From the sequence record PQ100635.1: a stretch of DNA of 64,000 nt; one strand, written 5' to 3'. Made by a program: the position numbers and the translations under genes. Every line of letters begins with the position of its first letter. Position 1 is the first letter of the stretch. The stretch comes from Escherichia phage PNJ-9. Below the pieces are notes generated by a model, which searched no databases, had not been told where the DNA came from, and saw nothing but the letters and a program-made list of their open reading frames with translations. Below, one piece after another: positions 5,202-27,596 of the stretch.

Positions 5202-5732
5202 ATGAAAACTGTAATTGAAACAACCGAACTGTTCGGTGATTTGACTATCGAAAAACGTGGTAATGTATACGTTCTGACTCAGGAAGATGATGGTATTACT
5301 ATTTGTCCTATGGAACTAGACGAGATTTTGAAACTCAATCCGCCTGGTCATGCATCGGCAATTAATATTGGTGGAGACCTTCAGGCTCGTTTTTATCATG
5401 GGCTTTATAACGGTGCTAATATCGAAACTGAAGACAAATGCCTTTCTATCGATAACTGGAAAACATTCGTTGCTAAGGTGAAAGAATTCTTGGAATCCGA
5501 ACCACCTGAAAAGGCTAAACTTAAATGGGGTATCAGTCGTGGTGCTTACATTATTAATCCAATAGCTCCAAACTATACCACGACTTTGGCAGTCATGAAT
5601 TCTTATGAAGATGGTGATGTCGTAACTATTCGCCAAAATGATGATTTACGTTCACATGTTACTACATTTACCAAAGACGAAGCTGTAGCTCTTAAAGCTT
5701 ATCTTGATTCTATTATCCCGACTTTGAAATAA
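5202..5732 (+). CDS. hypothetical protein (176 aa)
   Basis: ATG immediately after upstream TAA; GGTGAATAAT leader as at 45692 and 50362. Confidence 0.5.
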   Translation: MKTVIETTELFGDLTIEKRGNVYVLTQEDDGITICPMELDEILKLNPPGHASAINIGGDLQARFYHGLYNGANIETEDKCLSIDNWKTFVAKVKEFLESEPPEKAKLKWGISRGAYIINPIAPNYTTTLAVMNSYEDGDVVTIRQNDDLRSHVTTFTKDEAVALKAYLDSIIPTLK

Positions 5733-5741
5733 GGAATTATT

Positions 5742-6215
5742 ATGATTATCAATGAAAACTCTTGGCACTTTAAAATTTATGCCGCGTTCAATAGTACATG
5801 GAATCGCCCTAAAACGTTGTGTGCTTATTTTTGGAAAACGTTAATCCCGGTATTGTCTGTTTCAATTATCGGATTTGCGATTTTAGCAGCAGTAACAATC
5901 ATTGGCCAGGAAATTTTAACTAGATTCTTTGTTTTTAGCAGTCTATGGACATTAGTTCCAGCCTCAATTGGCGTAGGCATTTTAATGGTAGCAGTCATGG
6001 CTTTTATTTCTGCCGGGTTGGTAATTGGTCCGTCTTGGTTGTTAGACAAATATAACGACAGAAAATATTATAAAGAAATTGAGTTCATTGCACAAAACCA
6101 AGAACGAATTAAAAATGGACTTGAACCTATTGAACGTAAGAAATCATTAATAGGTGAATACATTAAAGCTCGTAAAGAAAAAGTCTGTCCTACTCTTGAA
6201 TATAAGGCTAAATGA
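5742..6215 (+). CDS. predicted membrane protein (157 aa)
   Basis: Three hydrophobic segments; AAGGA RBS. Confidence 0.55.
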   Translation: MIINENSWHFKIYAAFNSTWNRPKTLCAYFWKTLIPVLSVSIIGFAILAAVTIIGQEILTRFFVFSSLWTLVPASIGVGILMVAVMAFISAGLVIGPSWLLDKYNDRKYYKEIEFIAQNQERIKNGLEPIERKKSLIGEYIKARKEKVCPTLEYKAK

Positions 6216-14967: not shown

Positions 14968-15441
14968 ATGTTATTATCTGGCAAATTATACAAAGAAGAA
15001 AAACAAAAATTTTATGATGCACAGAATGGTAAGTGTCCTATTTGCCACCGTGAATTAGACCCTGATGTTCAAGGTAACCATCTTGACCACGACCACGAAT
15101 TAAACGGGCCAAAAGCAGGTAGAGTTCGTGGGTTACTCTGTAATCTGTGCAACGCAGCAGAAGGCCAAATGAAGCATAAGTTCAACCGTTCCGGTCTTAA
15201 AGGACGTGATGTCGACTACCTCGAATGGCTTGAAGCTCTTCTTGCTTATTTGAAACAAGATTATTCTGATAATAATATCCATCCTAATTTTGTTCCAGAC
15301 AAAACTAAAGAGTTCTCAAGACTAGGTAAAGAGGAAATGATGGCTGAGATGCTTCAAAGAGGATTTGAATATAATGAATCTGATACCAAAACACAATTAA
15401 TAGCTTCATTCAAAAAGCAGCTTAGAAAGAGTTTAAAATGA
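14968..15441 (+). CDS. 49: endonuclease VII (Holliday-junction resolvase)
   Basis: 157 aa; MLLSGKLYKEEKQKFYDAQNGKC and HLDHDHELNGPKAG match T4 gp49 from memory. Confidence 0.85.
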   Translation: MLLSGKLYKEEKQKFYDAQNGKCPICHRELDPDVQGNHLDHDHELNGPKAGRVRGLLCNLCNAAEGQMKHKFNRSGLKGRDVDYLEWLEALLAYLKQDYSDNNIHPNFVPDKTKEFSRLGKEEMMAEMLQRGFEYNESDTKTQLIASFKKQLRKSLK

Positions 15442-15980
15442 AAATTGAAAAAGAAATTGAAGGATTAATTCATAAAACTAATAAAGATCTTTTGAACGAG
15501 AATGCTAATAAAGATTCTCGTGTTTTTCCAACTCAACGGGACCTTATGGCTGGTATTGTGTCTAAGCACATTGCCAAAAATACGGTCCCGTCTTTTATTA
15601 TGAAAGCACATGAAAGCGGAATTATCCATTTCCATGATATTGATTATTCTCCTGCTCTTCCATTTACTAATTGCTGTTTAGTCGATTTAAAGGGGATGCT
15701 TGAGAATGGATTTAAATTAGGCAATGCTCAAATTGAAACGCCTAAATCGATTGGTGTTGCTACTGCAATTATGGCACAAATTACTGCGCAGGTTGCTTCC
15801 CATCAATACGGTGGAACTACATTTGCGAATGTAGATAAAGTCCTTTCTCCTTATGTTAAACGCACCTACGCAAAACATATTGAAGATGCAGAAAAATGGC
15901 AAATCTCTGATGCGTTGAATTATGCCCAATCTAAAACAGAAAAAGATGTCTATGACGCGTTCCAGGCGTATGAGTTAATT
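15438..15980 (+). CDS. nrdD: anaerobic ribonucleotide reductase NrdD, exon 1
   Basis: N-terminal NrdD-like sequence; reading frame hits TAA at the start of the intron; boundary +/- a few nt. Confidence 0.75.
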
Positions 15981-16989
15981 TAATTCAGGCTCATGTAAAA
16001 CCGGTCTAAACGGGGAACCTCTCTAGTAGACAATCCCGTGCTAAATGTTCTTTTGAACTAAATGCCTAACGACTAACCGTGATGAATGTAGCGGTGTAGA
16101 ATAGAAGCTAATGCTATTCGAAACGGCCGGCATCGAAAGATGAAGATATAGTCTAATCTGCATGGCGACATGCAGCAGTCATCTTGTATAAATAAGATTA
16201 TCTTATGAATACGAGGTGAAACAATGAAATGGATAAAAAGACGTTGTACTAAAATAAAAGATAAAGACGCATTTACATACTTAGTTAAGTTTTCTAATGG
16301 TGACATTTATATCGGTTATAAAAAATTTAGAACAATTAAAAACAAGCCCACAAACTGGAAAACTTACACAACGTCATCTAAGTATATAAATGAACGCTTA
16401 AAAACTGATACACCTACTAAATGGATAATTTTAAAAACATTTGATAGTTATAAAGATGCATTAAAACATGAAGAAGAGGTCATACGTAAATATTTTTATA
16501 GCAAAAAATGTTTAAATAAATCCATAGGCGGTAAAAAGTTTTATAAGCATCCGGATACTGAAGAACATATTCAAAAATTAAGAGATGCTCATAAGGGTAA
16601 AGTGTTATCCGAATCTCATAAAAACAATATAAAATCTTCTGTAGCTGAATATTATGCTAAAAACGGAAGATCTAAGGAACATGTGCAAAATAATATCAAT
16701 AGTCGAAAAAGTAAAAAACAAGTATCGATAAAGCTTAAAAATAAAACTTTTAGAAGTTTTAAAAAAGCAGCGGAATATTTAAATTGCACTGAAAGTGAAG
16801 TCGAAACTCATCCTCTTGTTTTGAGTATTAAGACTACTATTCATAAAGTTCCTGAATATGTGGTTGTTGACGGTATTAAGTATACGTCTTATATAGAAGC
16901 AGCTAAAGCGCTAAATTTTCATCCTAGCACTATAAAAGAACGTTGCATATCTATGGACTATCCAAATTTTGTTGTTTCATATAAACGGG
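15981..16989 (+). mobile_element. group I self-splicing intron in nrdD
   Basis: Begins TAATTCAGGCTC and contains TCTAAACGGGGAACCTCTCTAGTAGACAATCCCGTGCTAAAT, near-identical to the T4 td-type intron core from memory; ends on G; boundaries approximate. Confidence 0.75.
16187..16194 (+). promoter_or_regulatory. late promoter (TATAAATA) inside intron
   Basis: Exact consensus 30 nt upstream of the intron ORF. Confidence 0.5.
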
Positions 16990-16994
16990 CATGA
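16224..16994 (+). CDS. intron-encoded homing endonuclease (GIY-YIG-like)
   Basis: 256 aa; Y..NGDIYIGY N-terminal motif; located in intron 3' region like T4 I-TevII; GAGGTGA RBS. Confidence 0.65.
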   Translation: MKWIKRRCTKIKDKDAFTYLVKFSNGDIYIGYKKFRTIKNKPTNWKTYTTSSKYINERLKTDTPTKWIILKTFDSYKDALKHEEEVIRKYFYSKKCLNKSIGGKKFYKHPDTEEHIQKLRDAHKGKVLSESHKNNIKSSVAEYYAKNGRSKEHVQNNINSRKSKKQVSIKLKNKTFRSFKKAAEYLNCTESEVETHPLVLSIKTTIHKVPEYVVVDGIKYTSYIEAAKALNFHPSTIKERCISMDYPNFVVSYKRA

Positions 16995-18300
16995 ATTTGC
17001 GACTCATGCTGAATATAATGATGAAGTAAATACACTTTTCAGCTCTAATGGACAAACGCCTTTTGTAACAATTACATTTGGCACGGGAACTGACTGGACT
17101 GAACGAATGATTCAGAAAGCAATTCTGAAAAATCGTATTAAAGGTCTTGGCCGTGACGGGATAACTCCTATTTTCCCTAAACTTGTTATGTTCGTTGAAG
17201 AGGGTGTCAATCTTTATAAAGACGACCCGAACTACGATATTAAGCAGCTTGCTTTAGAATGCGCAAGCAAAAGAATGTATCCTGATATTATTTCAGTTAA
17301 GAACAATAAAGCTATTACTGGTTCTTCAGTTCCTGTTTCTCCGATGGGCTGTCGTAGTTTCTTGAGCGTATGGAAAGATTCGACTGGTAATGAAATTCTT
17401 GATGGACGTAATAATCTTGGTGTTGTAACACTGAATCTTCCTCGTATTGCATTAGATTCTTATATTGGAACACAATTCAATGAACAGAAATTTGTTGAGC
17501 TATTTAATGAACGAATGGATCTGTGTTTTGAAGCTTTGATGTGTAGAATTAGTTCTTTAAAGGGTGTTAAAGCAACTGTAGCTCCTATTCTTTACCAAGA
17601 AGGTGCATTCGGGGTTCGTCTTAAACCTGATGACGATATAATTGAGTTATTTAAAAATGGTAGAAGTTCAGTGTCCCTAGGATACATTGGTATTCACGAA
17701 TTGAATATTCTTGTCGGACGTGATATTGGACAGGAAATTTTAACTAAAATGAATGCTCGTCTTAAGCAGTGGACTGAAAGAACCGGTTTTGCTTTTAGTT
17801 TATATTCTACTCCTGCTGAAAACCTTTGTTATCGCTTCTGTAAACTTGATACAGAAAAATATGGAAGTGTAAAAGATGTCACCGATAAAGGCTGGTACAC
17901 TAACAGTTTCCACGTTTCAGTAGAAGAAAATATTACTCCATTTGAAAAGATTTCTCGTGAAGCCCCATATCATTTCATTGCAACAGGCGGTCACATTTCT
18001 TATGTTGAACTTCCAGATATGAAAAATAACTTAAAAGGTCTTGAGGCTGTCTGGGATTATGCTGCACAACATTTAGATTATTTTGGTGTTAATATGCCAG
18101 TAGATAAATGTTTTACATGTGGAAGTACTCATGAAATGACTCCTACTGAAAACGGATTTGTTTGTTCAGTTTGTGGAGAAAGTGATCCTAAAAAGATGAA
18201 CACCATAAGAAGAACATGTGGTTATTTGGGAAATCCGAACGAACGCGGATTTAATCTCGGTAAAAATAAAGAAATCATGCATAGGGTTAAACACCAATGA
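16990..18300 (+). CDS. nrdD: anaerobic ribonucleotide reductase NrdD, exon 2
   Basis: C-terminal glycyl-radical motif RRTCGYLGN and Zn-site CFTCGS...CSVCG; frame continuous with exon 1 after splicing. Confidence 0.8.
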   Translation, partial: HEFATHAEYNDEVNTLFSSNGQTPFVTITFGTGTDWTERMIQKAILKNRIKGLGRDGITPIFPKLVMFVEEGVNLYKDDPNYDIKQLALECASKRMYPDIISVKNNKAITGSSVPVSPMGCRSFLSVWKDSTGNEILDGRNNLGVVTLNLPRIALDSYIGTQFNEQKFVELFNERMDLCFEALMCRISSLKGVKATVAPILYQEGAFGVRLKPDDDIIELFKNGRSSVSLGYIGIHELNILVGRDIGQEILTKMNARLKQWTERTGFAFSLYSTPAENLCYRFCKLDTEKYGSVKDVTDKGWYTNSFHVSVEENITPFEKISREAPYHFIATGGHISYVELPDMKNNLKGLEAVWDYAAQHLDYFGVNMPVDKCFTCGSTHEMTPTENGFVCSVCGESDPKKMNTIRRTCGYLGNPNERGFNLGKNKEIMHRVKHQ

Positions 18301-22201: not shown

Positions 22202-22759
22202 ATGACTGAACAAAAACCTAAAAATAACTATGTGAATAATAAAGAGCTTCTCGCCGCTATAATCGAGTGGAAAAAGGAGCTCTTAAATAATAAAGACCCA
22301 AACAAAATTATTCGTCAGAATGATACCATCGGTTTAGCAATTATGCTTATCGCCGAAGGCCTGTCCAAACGTTTCAACTTTTCAGGATATACCCAGTCTT
22401 GGAAGCAGGAGATGATTGCAGATGGGATTGAAGCCTCTATTAAGGGACTTCATAATTTCGACGAAACTAAGTACAATAACCCACATGCATACATAACTCG
22501 AGCTTGTTTTAATGCTTTTGTCCAACGTATCAAAAAAGAGCGTAAGGAAGTTGCAAAGAAATATAGTTACTTCGTTCATAACGTCTACGACAGTCATGAC
22601 GATGATATGGTAGCGTTGGTAGATGAAACGTTTATTCAAGACATCTACGATAAAATGACGCATTATGAAGAATCCGCTTATAAAGCTCCTGGGGCTGAAA
22701 AGAAGGAAGTTGTTAGCGATTCGCCTAGTTTGGATTTTTTATATGAGGATGACAATTGA
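22202..22759 (+). CDS. 55: late-transcription sigma factor gp55
   Basis: 185 aa; NYVNNKELL...[50 protein letters not shown] matches T4 gp55 from memory. Confidence 0.9.
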
Positions 22760-23503: not shown

Positions 23504-23677
23504 ATGACGAACATCCCGACTTCTGAAAATTTCGATAAAATCCGTAAAGGCAAAGCAGAAAGAATGAGACGTTTTAAAGAGTCTTATGATAAAGCTAAAG
23601 CCGAAGGAACTATTACATACAAGCCCATTCGATTTAAAAGTTCAAATGAGCCTCTGTACGGTGTACTATGTGGATAG
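23504..23677 (+). CDS. small basic protein (57 aa), below track threshold
   Basis: ATG after GAGAGGTG RBS; followed directly by terminator. Confidence 0.4.
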   Translation: MTNIPTSENFDKIRKGKAERMRRFKESYDKAKAEGTITYKPIRFKSSNEPLYGVLCG

Positions 23678-23700
23678 GAACTCTTCGGAGTTCCTTTTTT
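23677..23700 (+). terminator. rho-independent terminator (TTCG tetraloop)
   Basis: GGAACTC-TTCG-GAGTTCC followed by TTTTTT. Confidence 0.65.
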
Positions 23701-23723
23701 GCTTTATAAACGGATGATAGAAT
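23700..23723 (+). promoter_or_regulatory. middle promoter (MotA box TGCTTTA, 11 bp, TAGAAT) upstream of gene 47
   Basis: Matches T4 MotA-dependent promoter architecture. Confidence 0.5.
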
Positions 23724-23746
23724 GAATTAACTAATGAGGAAATAAT

Positions 23747-24766
23747 ATGAAAATTTTAAATTTAGGTGATTGGCATTTAGGCGTTAAAGCTGATGATGAG
23801 TGGGTTCAATCAATCCAGTTGGATGGAATTAAGCAGGCGATAGAATATTCTAAGAAAAATGGAATTACTACATGGATTCAATACGGCGATATTTTTGATG
23901 TGCGAAAAGCAATCACGCATAAAACTATGGAGTTCGCACGTGAAATAGTTCAAATGCTTGATGATGCTGGTATTACCCTACATACTGTTGTAGGAAACCA
24001 TGATATGCACTTTAAAAATACTTTAACTCCAAACGCTTCTACTGAGCTTTTAGCTAAATATCCTAATGTTAAAGTATATGATAAGCCTACTACAGTAGAT
24101 TTTGACGGATGTTTGATTGATTTAATTCCTTGGATGTGCGAAGAAAATACTGGTGAAATTCTTGAACATATCAAAACTTCATCTGCTTCTTTTTGTGTTG
24201 GGCACTGGGAACTGAATGGTTTTTATTTCTATAAAGGAATGAAGTCTCATGGGCTTGAACCTGATTTTTTAAAGACCTATAAACAAGTCTGGTCCGGCCA
24301 CTTCCACACAATCTCTGAAGCTGCTAACGTCAAGTATATTGGGACACCATGGACCCTTACTGCAGGTGATGAAAACGACCCGCGCGGATTCTGGGTATTT
24401 GACACTGATGTTGAACGTATGGAATTTATTCCTAATGAAACAACATGGCATCGACGAATCACTTATCCGTTTAAAGGCAAAATCAATTATTCTGATTATA
24501 CTAATCTAGCCTTACGTGTTATAGTATCAGAAATTGATTCAGAGTTGACTAAGTTTGAATCTGAACTTGAAAAAGTAGTTCACTCTCTTCGTATGGTTTC
24601 TAAAGTTGATAACAGTGTTGAATCTGATGACGACCAGGAAATCGAGATTAAATCACTTCAAGATATCATTAAAGAATATATTGACGCGATTCCAGATATC
24701 TCAGACGAAGACAGAGAAGCGCTGGTCAAATATTCCAACGAACTTTATATTGAGGCAACACAATGA
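23747..24766 (+). CDS. 47: recombination endonuclease subunit gp47 (Mre11-like)
   Basis: 339 aa; calcineurin-like phosphoesterase motif LGDWHLG; synteny with gene 46. Confidence 0.9.
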   Translation: MKILNLGDWHLGVKADDEWVQSIQLDGIKQAIEYSKKNGITTWIQYGDIFDVRKAITHKTMEFAREIVQMLDDAGITLHTVVGNHDMHFKNTLTPNASTELLAKYPNVKVYDKPTTVDFDGCLIDLIPWMCEENTGEILEHIKTSSASFCVGHWELNGFYFYKGMKSHGLEPDFLKTYKQVWSGHFHTISEAANVKYIGTPWTLTAGDENDPRGFWVFDTDVERMEFIPNETTWHRRITYPFKGKINYSDYTNLALRVIVSEIDSELTKFESELEKVVHSLRMVSKVDNSVESDDDQEIEIKSLQDIIKEYIDAIPDISDEDREALVKYSNELYIEATQ

Positions 24767-25014
24767 CTTTAGATGAATTTAACAATGCTGGACTCAGGCT
24801 TGAAGTTGAAATGGACGTTAAAGATGATGATGGATTCGAGAACACTATCAAGTATTGGATTGAGCCATTACGCGTTGAAGGCAATGAAGTTAAAGCAGTT
24901 CATGTCTGCACTGACTGGGCTATTGAATTTAGCTTTAATATAATGGACAACGATACTCCTGGCTCTATTCTTAAAATGGCTGAAGCGTGTATTGAGGATG
25001 CATATAATGACTAA
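24763..25014 (+). CDS. hypothetical acidic protein (83 aa)
   Basis: ATGA overlap with gene 47. Confidence 0.5.
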   Translation: MTLDEFNNAGLRLEVEMDVKDDDGFENTIKYWIEPLRVEGNEVKAVHVCTDWAIEFSFNIMDNDTPGSILKMAEACIEDAYND

Positions 25015-25867
25015 GACTGATTATGAAACTCAAATTTATAAAATTCTTAAAACCTCCTTCCCTTCGTGGGAAGGACTTGATGAGTATTTAAACTTTATAA
25101 AAACTAATTCCACTAATAAAGTAAAAGGACTGACTCAGGTTCACCATATACTACCAAAATCTATTTTTCCAGATTTTAAAACATGTAAATGGAACTTGTG
25201 TCATTTAAGTCATTATAACCATTTTATTGCACATAGCATTTTGGCAAAAACTGGCAACCACAAGATGATTAACGCGCTTCAAAGAATGTATACCGGGCGA
25301 TTTAATTTAAATTGTACAACGCATGAACTAAATAATATAGCCGAGGCGTATTCTTTAGAATTCGAAAATGTTTGTAAAGTTAATTCTATAAAAATGACAT
25401 TATACTATTCCAATCAGGATAATAGAATTAAGATTAGTCAAGCTTTAAAAGCATGGTTTAAAAATCCGGAAAATTTAAAGAAACACAGAATTATGACAAG
25501 TTCAAAGGAATTTAAAGAAACCGTCTCTATTATGACCCAAAAGTGGTTTAGTGACCCTATTAATAAACAAAAACATTTGGATGCTTGTCGTAAAATATCT
25601 AAAACAGCCGAATATAGAGAATCATTATCGGCTGGAGTTTCACGCAGTTGGAAAAATCCTAAAGTTAGAGACACTCATTTGAAATCTAGAAGAAAAGGAT
25701 ATCATTGGGAAAATTTTGATATGCTTTACGTTGAATGGGTTAAAATGAACAAACCTAAATATGTGACTTTTTCTAAAAATTTAGTCAATTTAGGATATCC
25801 TATACAAAGTTCTTTACAGGCTTTAGTTTCTGAATTCATGAGGAAAAATTTAAGTGAAAACATTTAA
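25007..25867 (+). CDS. free-standing HNH homing endonuclease
   Basis: QVHHILPKS...NLCHLSHYNHFIAH HNH motif; inserted between genes 47 and 46; ATG after GAGGA. Confidence 0.65.
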   Translation: MTKTDYETQIYKILKTSFPSWEGLDEYLNFIKTNSTNKVKGLTQVHHILPKSIFPDFKTCKWNLCHLSHYNHFIAHSILAKTGNHKMINALQRMYTGRFNLNCTTHELNNIAEAYSLEFENVCKVNSIKMTLYYSNQDNRIKISQALKAWFKNPENLKKHRIMTSSKEFKETVSIMTQKWFSDPINKQKHLDACRKISKTAEYRESLSAGVSRSWKNPKVRDTHLKSRRKGYHWENFDMLYVEWVKMNKPKYVTFSKNLVNLGYPIQSSLQALVSEFMRKNLSENI

Positions 25868-27542
25868 ATTAAATCGTGTTCGTTATAAAAATATAATGTC
25901 TGTTGGGCAAAATTTTATCGATATCCAATTAGATAAAGTCCAAAAGACCTTAATCACAGGTAAAAATGGTGGTGGTAAATCTACGATGTTAGAAGCCATT
26001 ACTTTCGGACTTTTCGGTAAACCATTTCGTGATGTTAAGAAAGGGCAAATCGTTAACAGCACGAACAAGAAAGAGCTCTTAGTTGAGCTTTGGATGGAAT
26101 TCGATGGTAAAAAATACTTCATTAAACGTGGCCAAAAGCCCAATATTTTCGAAATCTCCGTTGACGGTGTTCGTCTTGATGAATCTGCCAGCAGTCGTGA
26201 CTTCCAAGAAGAATTTGAACGCAGCATCGGAATGTCATACGCGTCTTTTAAACAAATCGTTGTGCTTGGGACGGCAGGGTATACCCCTTTCATGGCTCTT
26301 AGCACCCCTGCTCGTAGAAAACTTGTCGAAGACCTTTTAGAAGTCGGCACACTCGCTGAAATGGATAAAATCAATAAGTCTCAAGTTCGAGAACTTAATT
26401 CCCAGGGACAAGTTCTCGATGCCAAGAAAGATGGCGTTATCCAACAAATTAAGATTTATAACGAGAATATCGAACGTCAAAAGAAATTATCTGGTGATAA
26501 TGTAGCGCGCCTACAGAATATGTATGACGACCTAGCCAAAGAAGCTCGTTCATTAAAAGCAGAAATCGAAGAAGCTAATGAGCGACTACTTAATATCGTT
26601 CTTGATGAAGACCCTACTGAGGCATTCAACAAGATAGGACAAGAAGCATTCTTGATTAAATCTAAAATTGACTCGTATAACAAAGTTATTAAGATGTATC
26701 ATGACGGTGGTACATGTCCTACTTGTGCGTCGCAATTGCACCAGGGTGATCCTATTGTCTCTAAGATTACCGATAAGCTTCACGAATGTAATCACTCATT
26801 CGAGCAACTTACATGTCACAGAGATAATCTGAGTGTCCTAGTGGACGAATATAGAGCTAATGTTAAGACTAAACAGGACCTTGCATCTGATATTCGTACC
26901 AAGAAACAAGCAATGATTGCCACTATTGATAAAGCTAAGAAAGTTAAAGCTGCAATAGAGCAAGCCTCAGCAGAATTTATCGACCATGCCGATGAGATAG
27001 CTTTGCTTCAAAAAGAACTTGATAAAATCATTAAAACAAAATCTGATATCGTTCTTGAAAAATACCATCGTGGTATTATCACAGATATGTTAAAAGATTC
27101 TGGTATTAAAGGTGCTATCATTAAAAAATATGTGCCTCTGTTCAACAAGCAGATTAACTATTATCTTAAAATCATGGAAGCTGATTACGTGTTTTCTATT
27201 GACGAAGAATTCAATGAATCTATAAAATCACGTGGTCGTGAAGATTTTAGTTATGCTTCATTTAGTCAAGGTGAAAAGGCACGTATCGATATCGCATTGT
27301 TGTTTACATGGCGAGATATTGCTGAAAAAGTCTCCGGTGTTAAAATCAACACTCTGATTCTTGATGAGGTTTTTGATGGTGCTGTCGATTCTGAGGCTGT
27401 TAAGGCTATAGATACCATTCTTGGAAGTTTACAAAATACTAATGTGTTCATTATCTCTCATCGAGACCATGACCCTCAGCGGTATGGACAACATCTTCAG
27501 ATGAGCAAAGTTGGACGATTTACGGTAATGACTGTTTCATAA
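25854..27542 (+). CDS. 46: recombination endonuclease subunit gp46 (Rad50/SbcC-like ATPase)
   Basis: 562 aa; Walker A GKNGGGKST; conserved N-terminus MKTFKLNRV requires GTG start overlapping HNH gene 3' end. Confidence 0.9.
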   Translation: MKTFKLNRVRYKNIMSVGQNFIDIQLDKVQKTLITGKNGGGKSTMLEAITFGLFGKPFRDVKKGQIVNSTNKKELLVELWMEFDGKKYFIKRGQKPNIFEISVDGVRLDESASSRDFQEEFERSIGMSYASFKQIVVLGTAGYTPFMALSTPARRKLVEDLLEVGTLAEMDKINKSQVRELNSQGQVLDAKKDGVIQQIKIYNENIERQKKLSGDNVARLQNMYDDLAKEARSLKAEIEEANERLLNIVLDEDPTEAFNKIGQEAFLIKSKIDSYNKVIKMYHDGGTCPTCASQLHQGDPIVSKITDKLHECNHSFEQLTCHRDNLSVLVDEYRANVKTKQDLASDIRTKKQAMIATIDKAKKVKAAIEQASAEFIDHADEIALLQKELDKIIKTKSDIVLEKYHRGIITDMLKDSGIKGAIIKKYVPLFNKQINYYLKIMEADYVFSIDEEFNESIKSRGREDFSYASFSQGEKARIDIALLFTWRDIAEKVSGVKINTLILDEVFDGAVDSEAVKAIDTILGSLQNTNVFIISHRDHDPQRYGQHLQMSKVGRFTVMTVS

Positions 27543-27543
27543 A

Positions 27544-27568
27544 CGCTTTAACATGATGTGGTTATAAT
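27544..27568 (+). promoter_or_regulatory. middle promoter candidate (GCTTTAA box, TATAAT) with 8-bp palindrome GATGTGGT/ACCACATC flanking -10
   Basis: Read directly. Confidence 0.45.
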
Positions 27569-27596
27569 GACCACATCAAATTAAATGGAGAACAAC

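Follow-up and report, generated by a model that had tools for sequence, protein, structure and literature searches.

Escherichia phage PNJ-9 is an RB69/JS09-like relative of phage T4 (Mosigvirus), of which we have analyzed a stretch of 64,000 nucleotides (sequence record PQ100635.1; hereafter the window). In this Mosigvirus lineage, the small, dispensable gene 46.1, located just upstream of the recombination gene 46, has been replaced by an open reading frame (ORF; positions 25007-25867) that we assign to the Mob-type HNH endonucleases. The reading that we favor, with a probability of roughly 0.7, is that a free-standing Mob-type homing endonuclease gene has taken the place of 46.1, acts on the 5' end of gene 46 and spreads together with a co-converted patch of this neighboring gene. 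We infer the activity of the endonuclease, its target and its preferential inheritance from sequence comparisons, and these comparisons place the target probably in the 5' end of gene 46.

The endonuclease ORF is intact and extends on the + strand from an ATG at 25007 to a TAA at 25865-25867, encoding a protein of 286 amino acids. The ORF is real, and the coordinates given for it in the preliminary description of this DNA were exact: eight related phages have GenBank annotations with identical limits, and their ORFs are identical or nearly so. That description also saw the gene as wedged directly between genes 47 and 46, which were taken to be normally adjacent, and on both points the picture has to be corrected. 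Gene 46.2 is retained and separates gene 47 from the ORF, whose start overlaps the end of gene 46.2 by 8 nucleotides (stop at 25014). Moreover, T4 as well as the RB69-like and JS09-like phages normally hold 46.2 and 46.1 in the interval between 47 and 46. With 46.1 occupying this slot in the relatives and the order being alike in T4 (47-46.2-46.1-46), genes 47 and 46 are therefore not normally adjacent here, direct adjacency being restricted to some Gelderlandviruses such as STML-198. On either side of the ORF, the neighboring gene (46.2 and 46, respectively) is intact, as is expected of a free-standing gene.

The comparison with relatives devoid of the insert, which had been proposed as a check, has been run and revealed the replacement of 46.1 instead of an insertion into a 47-46 pair. 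In AV117, JS09, RPN187, DCP548, SSE1, PhAPEC2 and ST0, which have no such ORF, the same slot is filled by the 240-bp gene 46.1 (DUF5487), which begins at the same position as the endonuclease ORF and forms an ATGA overlap with the following gene 46. Gene 46.1 was not found elsewhere in the window. At the 5' junction, the sequence is identical to that of AV117, JS09 and the five other endonuclease-less phages through 25028, and group-fixed differences begin at 25029. The homology of the endonuclease ORF to 46.1 ends at 25028/25029, and its start codon and first seven codons (MTKTDYE) are inherited from 46.1. With the ATG and these seven codons shared, the endonuclease gene therefore relies for its translation on the initiation region of 46.1, a sequence within 46.2 that the phages without endonuclease also have. 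No T4 late promoter (TATAAATA) was found in or near the ORF, and the counts of sigma-70-like promoters and of terminators around it were not above those of shuffled sequences; the sole good terminator is located upstream of gene 47 (23676-23695). A window-wide scan returned no Rfam family at gathering score, a scan that also missed the intron in nrdD (see below) and was not repeated locally over 25007-25867. Placed in the 47-46.2-46 gene string, the endonuclease gene behaves like a cassette lacking its own promoter, a situation known from several seg and mob genes of T4 (PMC2988022).

Regarding the mobility of this cassette, the presence or absence of the ORF varies among phages which are 94-98% identical in its flanks. 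Among Mosigvirus records, nine carriers stand against about 120 non-carriers, and the boundaries of the variable segment are sharp, at 25029 and within nucleotides 1-66 of gene 46. When eight carriers were compared with seven non-carriers, no group-fixed difference was present in the 1300 nucleotides upstream of 25007 (genes 47 and 46.2) or in gene 46 beyond nucleotide 66 (1.6 kb). Outside 25029-25919, the divergence between the two groups equals the diversity within them. Among the eight carriers, nucleotide diversity is 6.8% in gene 47 and 3.0% in gene 46.2, falls to 0.30% in the endonuclease cassette (10 singletons in 825 nucleotides) and to 0 in nucleotides 1-66 of gene 46, and is again 3.7% in the rest of this gene. 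Compared with its own flanks in the same genomes, the cassette shows a diversity 10-20 times lower, which indicates that it has spread recently across diverged backgrounds.

The same region holds two further observations. Among Mosigviruses, the 5' half of gene 47 (about 23707-24200) and the 3' end of gene 46 (about 27320-27540) are 9-21% divergent in pairwise comparisons and the sequence between these two segments 0.5-3%, regardless of endonuclease status; this pattern suggests mosaic exchange of gene segments. Phage F2 (L004, NC_054913.1) is classified in RefSeq as a Tequatrovirus, but its 47-46 region is 94% identical to that of PNJ-9 and contains the Mosigvirus-type cassette, so that either its taxonomy is mislabelled or its genome is mosaic.

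The differences that accompany the cassette extend into gene 46 itself. In Mosigvirus, nucleotides 8-33 of this gene are identical in carriers and non-carriers, and the divergence is concentrated at nucleotides 34-66, where two discrete alleles are found with 10-11 differences in 33 nucleotides: the common allele A, CAAAACATCATGTCGGTAGGTGGGAATCCTATT, and the endonuclease-linked allele B, AAAAATATAATGTCTGTTGGGCAAAATTTTATC. In the 15 genomes compared above, the patch is fixed between the groups. A targeted search of 130 Mosigvirus records recovered about 115 with A and 14-15 with B; allele B was present in all nine endonuclease-carrying records vs five of the approximately 120 records without endonuclease. 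Three of these five have been checked (G2285, WFL6982 and PTE-Eco05) and combine an intact 46.1, an ATG start of gene 46 and allele B, with breakpoints between nucleotides 1-7 or nucleotides 7-34 of gene 46. A parallel is found in Gelderlandvirus: the Salmonella phage Melville and a metagenomic contig, both carrying an endonuclease homologue, have AAT ATW ATG TCT GTT GGA CAA, whereas the endonuclease-less S16 and STML-198 have AAC ATT ATG TCA GTG GGC GGT. The A/B pattern is as would be expected if the enzyme acted within allele A and if B were a resistant form acquired by co-conversion.

The assignment of the encoded protein relies on several lines of evidence. The ORF matches phrog_655 ('homing endonuclease', E value 4.5e-31) and phrog_12434 ('HNH endonuclease', 2.4e-12), and T4 MobD aligns to it by tblastn (E value 6e-13) with 29% identity over residues 43-277. 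In the alignment with MobD and MobB, residues T43, H46, H47, P50, N63, L67, H72, F73, A75 and H76 are invariant; MobB itself passes the Pfam HNH cutoff (22.5 bits vs 21.4), MobD being sub-threshold. A word-indexed protein search found few relatives and missed the 45%-identical proteins of T6-type phages; an exhaustive HMMER search gave 769 relatives, and conservation was scored in 97. Across these 97 homologues, H46 and H72 are invariant, and conservation is 90% or higher at H47, I48, P50, N63, L67 and H76. Pfam HNH or HNH_4 is matched by just 2-3 of the 97 and I-HmuI_NUMOD-like by three; NUMOD3 is matched by 28, the PNJ-9 protein itself not being among them. Searched against the PDB, a profile of the N-terminal domain retrieved at E values up to 10 four sequences, all of them HNH enzymes aligned on the motif, albeit with weak values (McrA, 0.1; two Cas8f-HNH fusions, 0.21 and 0.34; a group II intron maturase, 1.2). 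The residues characteristic of the HNH superfamily are present, the same conserved His/Asn/His residues (HH...N...H) aligning in MobD, MobB, McrA and Cas8f-HNH. In the HNH pattern, the histidines serve as general base and as metal ligand, respectively, and the asparagine has a structural role.

A confident AlphaFold2 model of the protein (predicted local distance difference test score 93.8) places a strand at residues 43-47, a second strand at 64-68 and a helix at 69-80, a beta-beta-alpha arrangement around the motif residues. On the basis of this model, the protein is presumed to consist of an N-terminal HNH nuclease, a NUMOD3-like helical linker and a C-terminal helix-turn-helix. From homology, motif and model, we conclude that the product of the ORF is likely a divergent HNH protein of the Mob type; in absolute terms, its structural support is weak. 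In GenBank, such ORFs are labelled 'MobD-like homing endonuclease', 'HNH endonuclease', 'mobile endonuclease' or 'hypothetical protein', the last label being frequent because curated HNH profiles miss them.

Homologues of this endonuclease occur in other lineages. In Gelderlandvirus, five of about 16 records have one: Melville carries a 56%-identical copy between 47 and 46 with the same 14-nucleotide overlap. In the metagenomic contig mentioned above, the homologue lies immediately 5' of gene 46. In Tequatrovirus, the T6-type endonuclease is found in 72 of 518 records and is represented in Aplg8 by a 45%-identical copy, also immediately 5' of gene 46, with 46.1 kept. The T2 copy (L007 2432-3284) has, relative to Aplg8, a 2-nucleotide deletion at 609-610 and is annotated as two ORFs; judging from its sequence, it is probably a decaying copy, i.e., a pseudogene. 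More distant relatives such as T4 mobD reside at other loci. Our literature search found no paper on an endonuclease gene at the 46.1/46 position.

A second type of endonuclease gene is found on the other side of gene 46. In several relatives, a 717-bp gene annotated as 'similar to mobB' lies on the opposite strand directly downstream of 46, before 45.2. Its coordinates are L004 4340-4832 in F2, L013 5840-6556 in G2469 and L006 4983-5699 in Aplg8, and these three phages have mobile endonuclease genes on both sides of gene 46. ST0 shows at 46-45.2 an unannotated gap of about 790 bp (L019, about 5232-6023), and in PNJ-9 the second gene is absent (27542-27585).

The 3' end of the cassette overlaps the start of gene 46. 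The GTG at 25854-25856, 14 nucleotides ahead of the endonuclease stop, aligns exactly with the ATG or GTG starts of the relatives, including T4, and the in-frame codon preceding it (25851-25853) is a TAA, which makes this GTG the first possible start of gene 46. Across three genera, the peptide encoded by codons 2-14 is conserved, and the codons differ mostly by synonymous changes (T4 vs S16: nine synonymous vs three non-synonymous codons); this stretch is therefore translated, and the ATG of codon 15 is not the start. The claim that gene 46 starts with a GTG inside the 3' end of the ORF is thus borne out. A start at the ATG of codon 15 (25896), with which the overlap would be without consequence for expression, appears very improbable. 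It is where the GenBank annotation of vB_EcoM-172859UKE1 begins gene 46, but the conservation of codons 2-14 and the alignment of the GTG with the annotated starts of all relatives speak against it, as do the GTG used in the annotations of seven other carrier phages and the GAGG found 10 nucleotides upstream of this codon. In vB_EcoM-172859UKE1 (L011 4197-5843), gene 46 is mis-started at the internal ATG and loses 14 conserved N-terminal residues.

The last codons of the endonuclease ORF provide this GAGG, a Shine-Dalgarno sequence that supplants the GAAGAGAATACAT-ATG context (GAAGAG...ATG) of endonuclease-less relatives, and include the GTG of gene 46; the stop codon TAA of the ORF is formed by the conserved codons 4-5 of gene 46 (TTT AAA). 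A hairpin over the GTG region (25847-25870) is predicted, but it is no better than that of shuffled sequence (z -1.1). The proposal that the insertion remodelled the initiation region of gene 46 holds in part: the upstream sequence and the Shine-Dalgarno sequence are supplied by the insert, but the GTG was not made by it, as gene 46 also starts with GTG in T4, in a GTGA overlap with 46.1, and in STML-198, both without the ORF. In Melville and the T6-type phages, the homologous endonuclease gene stands beside an ATG-initiated gene 46. The association of GTG with the endonuclease gene is confined to Mosigvirus, in which GTG is found in all eight carriers examined and ATG in all ten non-carriers examined.

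The mechanism proposed here is standard for free-standing endonuclease genes, with possible nicking as for MobA and MobE (PMC2988022). During mixed infection, the enzyme would nick or cut endonuclease-less genomes in the first ~70 nucleotides of gene 46, most likely within codons 12-22 of the common allele A. Recombinational repair from the carrier genome would copy the endonuclease gene along with the adjacent resistant B allele, resulting in co-conversion, and short repair tracts would give rise to endonuclease-less genomes with the B allele only. That Mosigvirus, Gelderlandvirus and Tequatrovirus all harbor this lineage directly ahead of gene 46 would reflect the usual life cycle of invasion, spread and decay.

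Several results weigh against this proposal. Pfam (E≤0.1) and NCBIfam (E≤1) scans of the protein gave no HNH or NUMOD match; against the PDB, single-sequence phmmer gave nothing relevant, just a spurious interferon-gamma match, and the full-length family profile coiled-coil noise only. Foldseek, with the full model against the PDB, found no significant match, some of the sub-threshold ones being HNH or Tox-GHH-containing chains. The preliminary description had called the protein an HNH endonuclease and had named the lack of an HNH motif on profile search as evidence to the contrary; formally, this is what Pfam and NCBIfam return, and curated profiles are indeed silent, but the PHROG matches, the homology to MobD and MobB, the motif residues and the predicted core outweigh their silence. 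The linkage between allele B and the endonuclease is strong (Fisher p of about 1e-10) and speaks for the proposal, but the test treats related genomes as independent. T4, without the endonuclease gene, has a B-like sequence; the A/B rule therefore does not extend to Tequatrovirus, whose 45%-identical endonuclease may have a different specificity. B is also present without the endonuclease, and it may be the allele of the first-invaded genome, hitch-hiking with the cassette, and not an immunity site. A broader form of the latter view is that the gene is an inactive or domesticated relic: its product would be a decaying endonuclease or would just bind DNA, and the gene, no longer mobile, would be passed on vertically or through ordinary homologous recombination, with the gene 46 patch hitch-hiking from the genome in which 46.1 was first replaced. 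The absence of a curated HNH profile match, the independent existence of allele B in the five endonuclease-less records and the decay seen in T2 are in its favor. We nevertheless regard it as quite unlikely, given an ORF that is intact in eight of eight carriers with just 10 singleton substitutions, the conservation of every catalytic-motif residue, a low cassette diversity that favors recent spread over old vertical inheritance and the recurrence of a B-like allele association in a second genus, Gelderlandvirus.

A less distant contender, although still an unlikely one, is that the endonuclease is active but recognizes, instead of codons 12-22 of gene 46, the 46.1-46 junction, which is disrupted in carriers in the manner of intron-encoded enzymes, or a site elsewhere, the B patch being only the co-conversion tract of the original donor. 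Indeed, in Tequatrovirus, most of the differences between carriers (Aplg8/T6-type) and the non-carrier T4 fall in codons 1-3 and upstream of them instead of codons 12-19, and the breakpoints of the recombinants lie right at the start of gene 46. Such a target would, however, leave aside that in Mosigvirus the divergence is concentrated in nucleotides 34-66, after a block (8-33) identical in both groups, that the A/B contrast is paralleled at the same codons in Gelderlandvirus, and that T4 endonucleases of the free-standing type usually act some way off from the gene that encodes them (PMC2988022). A homing endonuclease gene which acts within the 5' end of gene 46 remains our favored reading.

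The endonuclease of PNJ-9 is a previously uncharacterized member of the T4 Mob family and, as such, an ordinary kind of element. Mob proteins combine an HNH domain with a distinct C-terminal region, and nicking of the target is established for MobA and MobE; free-standing endonuclease genes are in many cases cassettes without a promoter, acting at a distance and causing co-conversion (PMC2988022). The PNJ-9 protein shares with this family the HH...N...H..H motif, and its model suggests a similar layout, with a probable N-terminal HNH domain and a presumed C-terminal DNA-binding region. Like the T4 Mob genes, its gene is free-standing, promoter-less, placed in an existing gene string and sporadic among relatives. 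The homology to MobD, for which no activity has been demonstrated and no target is known (PMC2988022), covers 82% of the length with 28-29% identity only. Moreover, T4 mobD is located at a different genomic site, between nrdC.11 and mobD.1, and does not, as here, replace a resident gene and borrow its first seven codons. A parallel in layout is the 'MobD-like homing endonuclease' of Melville, with the 14-nucleotide overlap into gene 46 and the same ...ENx* tail, but the Melville gene lies directly between 47 and 46, without 46.2 or 46.1, and its gene 46 starts with ATG. The T6-type copy differs from the PNJ-9 gene in that it ends 15 nucleotides before an ATG-initiated gene 46 and leaves 46.1 in place.

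Replacement of a resident gene has a counterpart in SegH and Hef, which, according to a 2005 study by Sandegren and colleagues, are said to replace mobC and mobE in T4-related phages. In both situations, a free-standing endonuclease gene is found where relatives have a different gene; unlike in these cases, the gene replaced here (46.1) is not an endonuclease gene. The likely action on a neighboring conserved gene with co-conversion of the flank resembles homing by SegG and MobE, in which the cleavage site is distant (PMC2988022). Finally, I-HmuI, encoded by an intron of the Bacillus phage SPO1, nicks one strand (PMC2988022). The modelled PNJ-9 protein resembles it as an elongated HNH nuclease with presumed helical NUMOD-type modules and C-terminal helix-turn-helix, although PDB profile searches and Foldseek gave no significant sequence or fold match to I-HmuI, and the PNJ-9 gene is free-standing, unlike the intron-encoded one.

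Table 1. Features of the gene 47-46 region of PNJ-9, with positions in the window.
Feature	Position	Strand	Evidence or remark
Gene 55	22202-22759	+	Near the endonuclease ORF
Gene 47, Mre11/SbcD-like nuclease subunit	23747-24766	+	Pfam Metallophos; phrog_100 (2.3e-140); gp47 in relatives' annotations
Gene 46.2, 83-codon ORF	24763-25014	+	Pfam PF25721 T4_Y03C (E value 6e-43); gp46.2 in JS09 and T4
Start codon and first 7 codons (MTKTDYE) inherited from 46.1	25007-25028	+	5' junction alignment
Endonuclease ORF, Mob-type (MobD-like) HNH, 286 amino acids	25007-25867	+	PHROG families, T4 MobD homology
Segment differing from endonuclease-less Mosigviruses (mobile cassette and co-inherited tract)	25029-25919	+	Group-fixed differences only here
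Predicted HNH (beta-beta-alpha-metal) catalytic core, residues 43-80, with H46, H47, N63, H72, H76	25133-25246	+	
Long helical repeat region, residues 105-227, NUMOD3-like, presumed DNA-binding linker	25319-25687	+	Predicted helices
C-terminal three-helix domain, residues 232-285, presumed helix-turn-helix DNA-binding	25700-25861	+	
Shine-Dalgarno sequence GAGG for gene 46	25840-25843	+	10 nucleotides before the GTG, inside the endonuclease ORF
Gene 46, Rad50/SbcC-like ATPase subunit, 562 codons	25854-27542	+	phrog_77 (2.9e-195); Pfam AAA_23/SMC_N
Endonuclease-linked allele B, gene 46 nucleotides 34-66 (codons 12-22), proposed target/immunity site	25887-25919	+	
Genes 45.2, rpbA and 45	After gene 46	+	

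The 47-46 region of PNJ-9 as a whole is 94-98% identical to that of pEK20, AV112 and JS09, and the window contains other candidate mobile or endonuclease-related sequences. In nrdD, the anaerobic ribonucleotide reductase gene (15438-18300), an insert of about 1 kb splits the gene into ORFs of 181 and 443 codons. It comprises a group I intron core at 15944-16175 (Rfam RF00028, 74 bits, E value 1.3e-18 in a local scan) followed by a homing endonuclease ORF of 256 amino acids (16224-16994, phrog_314), and is present in 64 of 1160 matching phage records. A 248-amino-acid ORF at 51650-52396 matches the Srd anti-sigma factor family (phrog_1400, 2.3e-99) and also matches HNH endonuclease/endonuclease VII families (phrog_3118, 1.7e-14; phrog_1035, 5.9e-11).

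To our knowledge, targets have been established for only a few of the free-standing endonucleases encoded by T4-like phages and, within the Mob (HNH) group, for none but MobA and MobE. What is new here is the concrete prediction of a target/immunity region, together with natural strains in which to follow it: carriers, non-carriers with the presumably sensitive allele, apparently resistant non-carriers differing in a 33-nucleotide patch, and the decayed copy of T2. This locus could hence reveal the site of action of a Mob enzyme and the way in which immune alleles free of endonuclease arise from short conversion tracts. More tentatively, and with somewhat less than even odds in our estimation, a single Mob-like lineage may have specialized on the 5' end of gene 46 in at least three genera, with allele A being sensitive, allele B immune and the endonuclease-less B phages short-tract escapees. 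If this is true, the element targets a gene whose own product, as part of the gp46/47 nuclease complex, may resect the breaks during homing.

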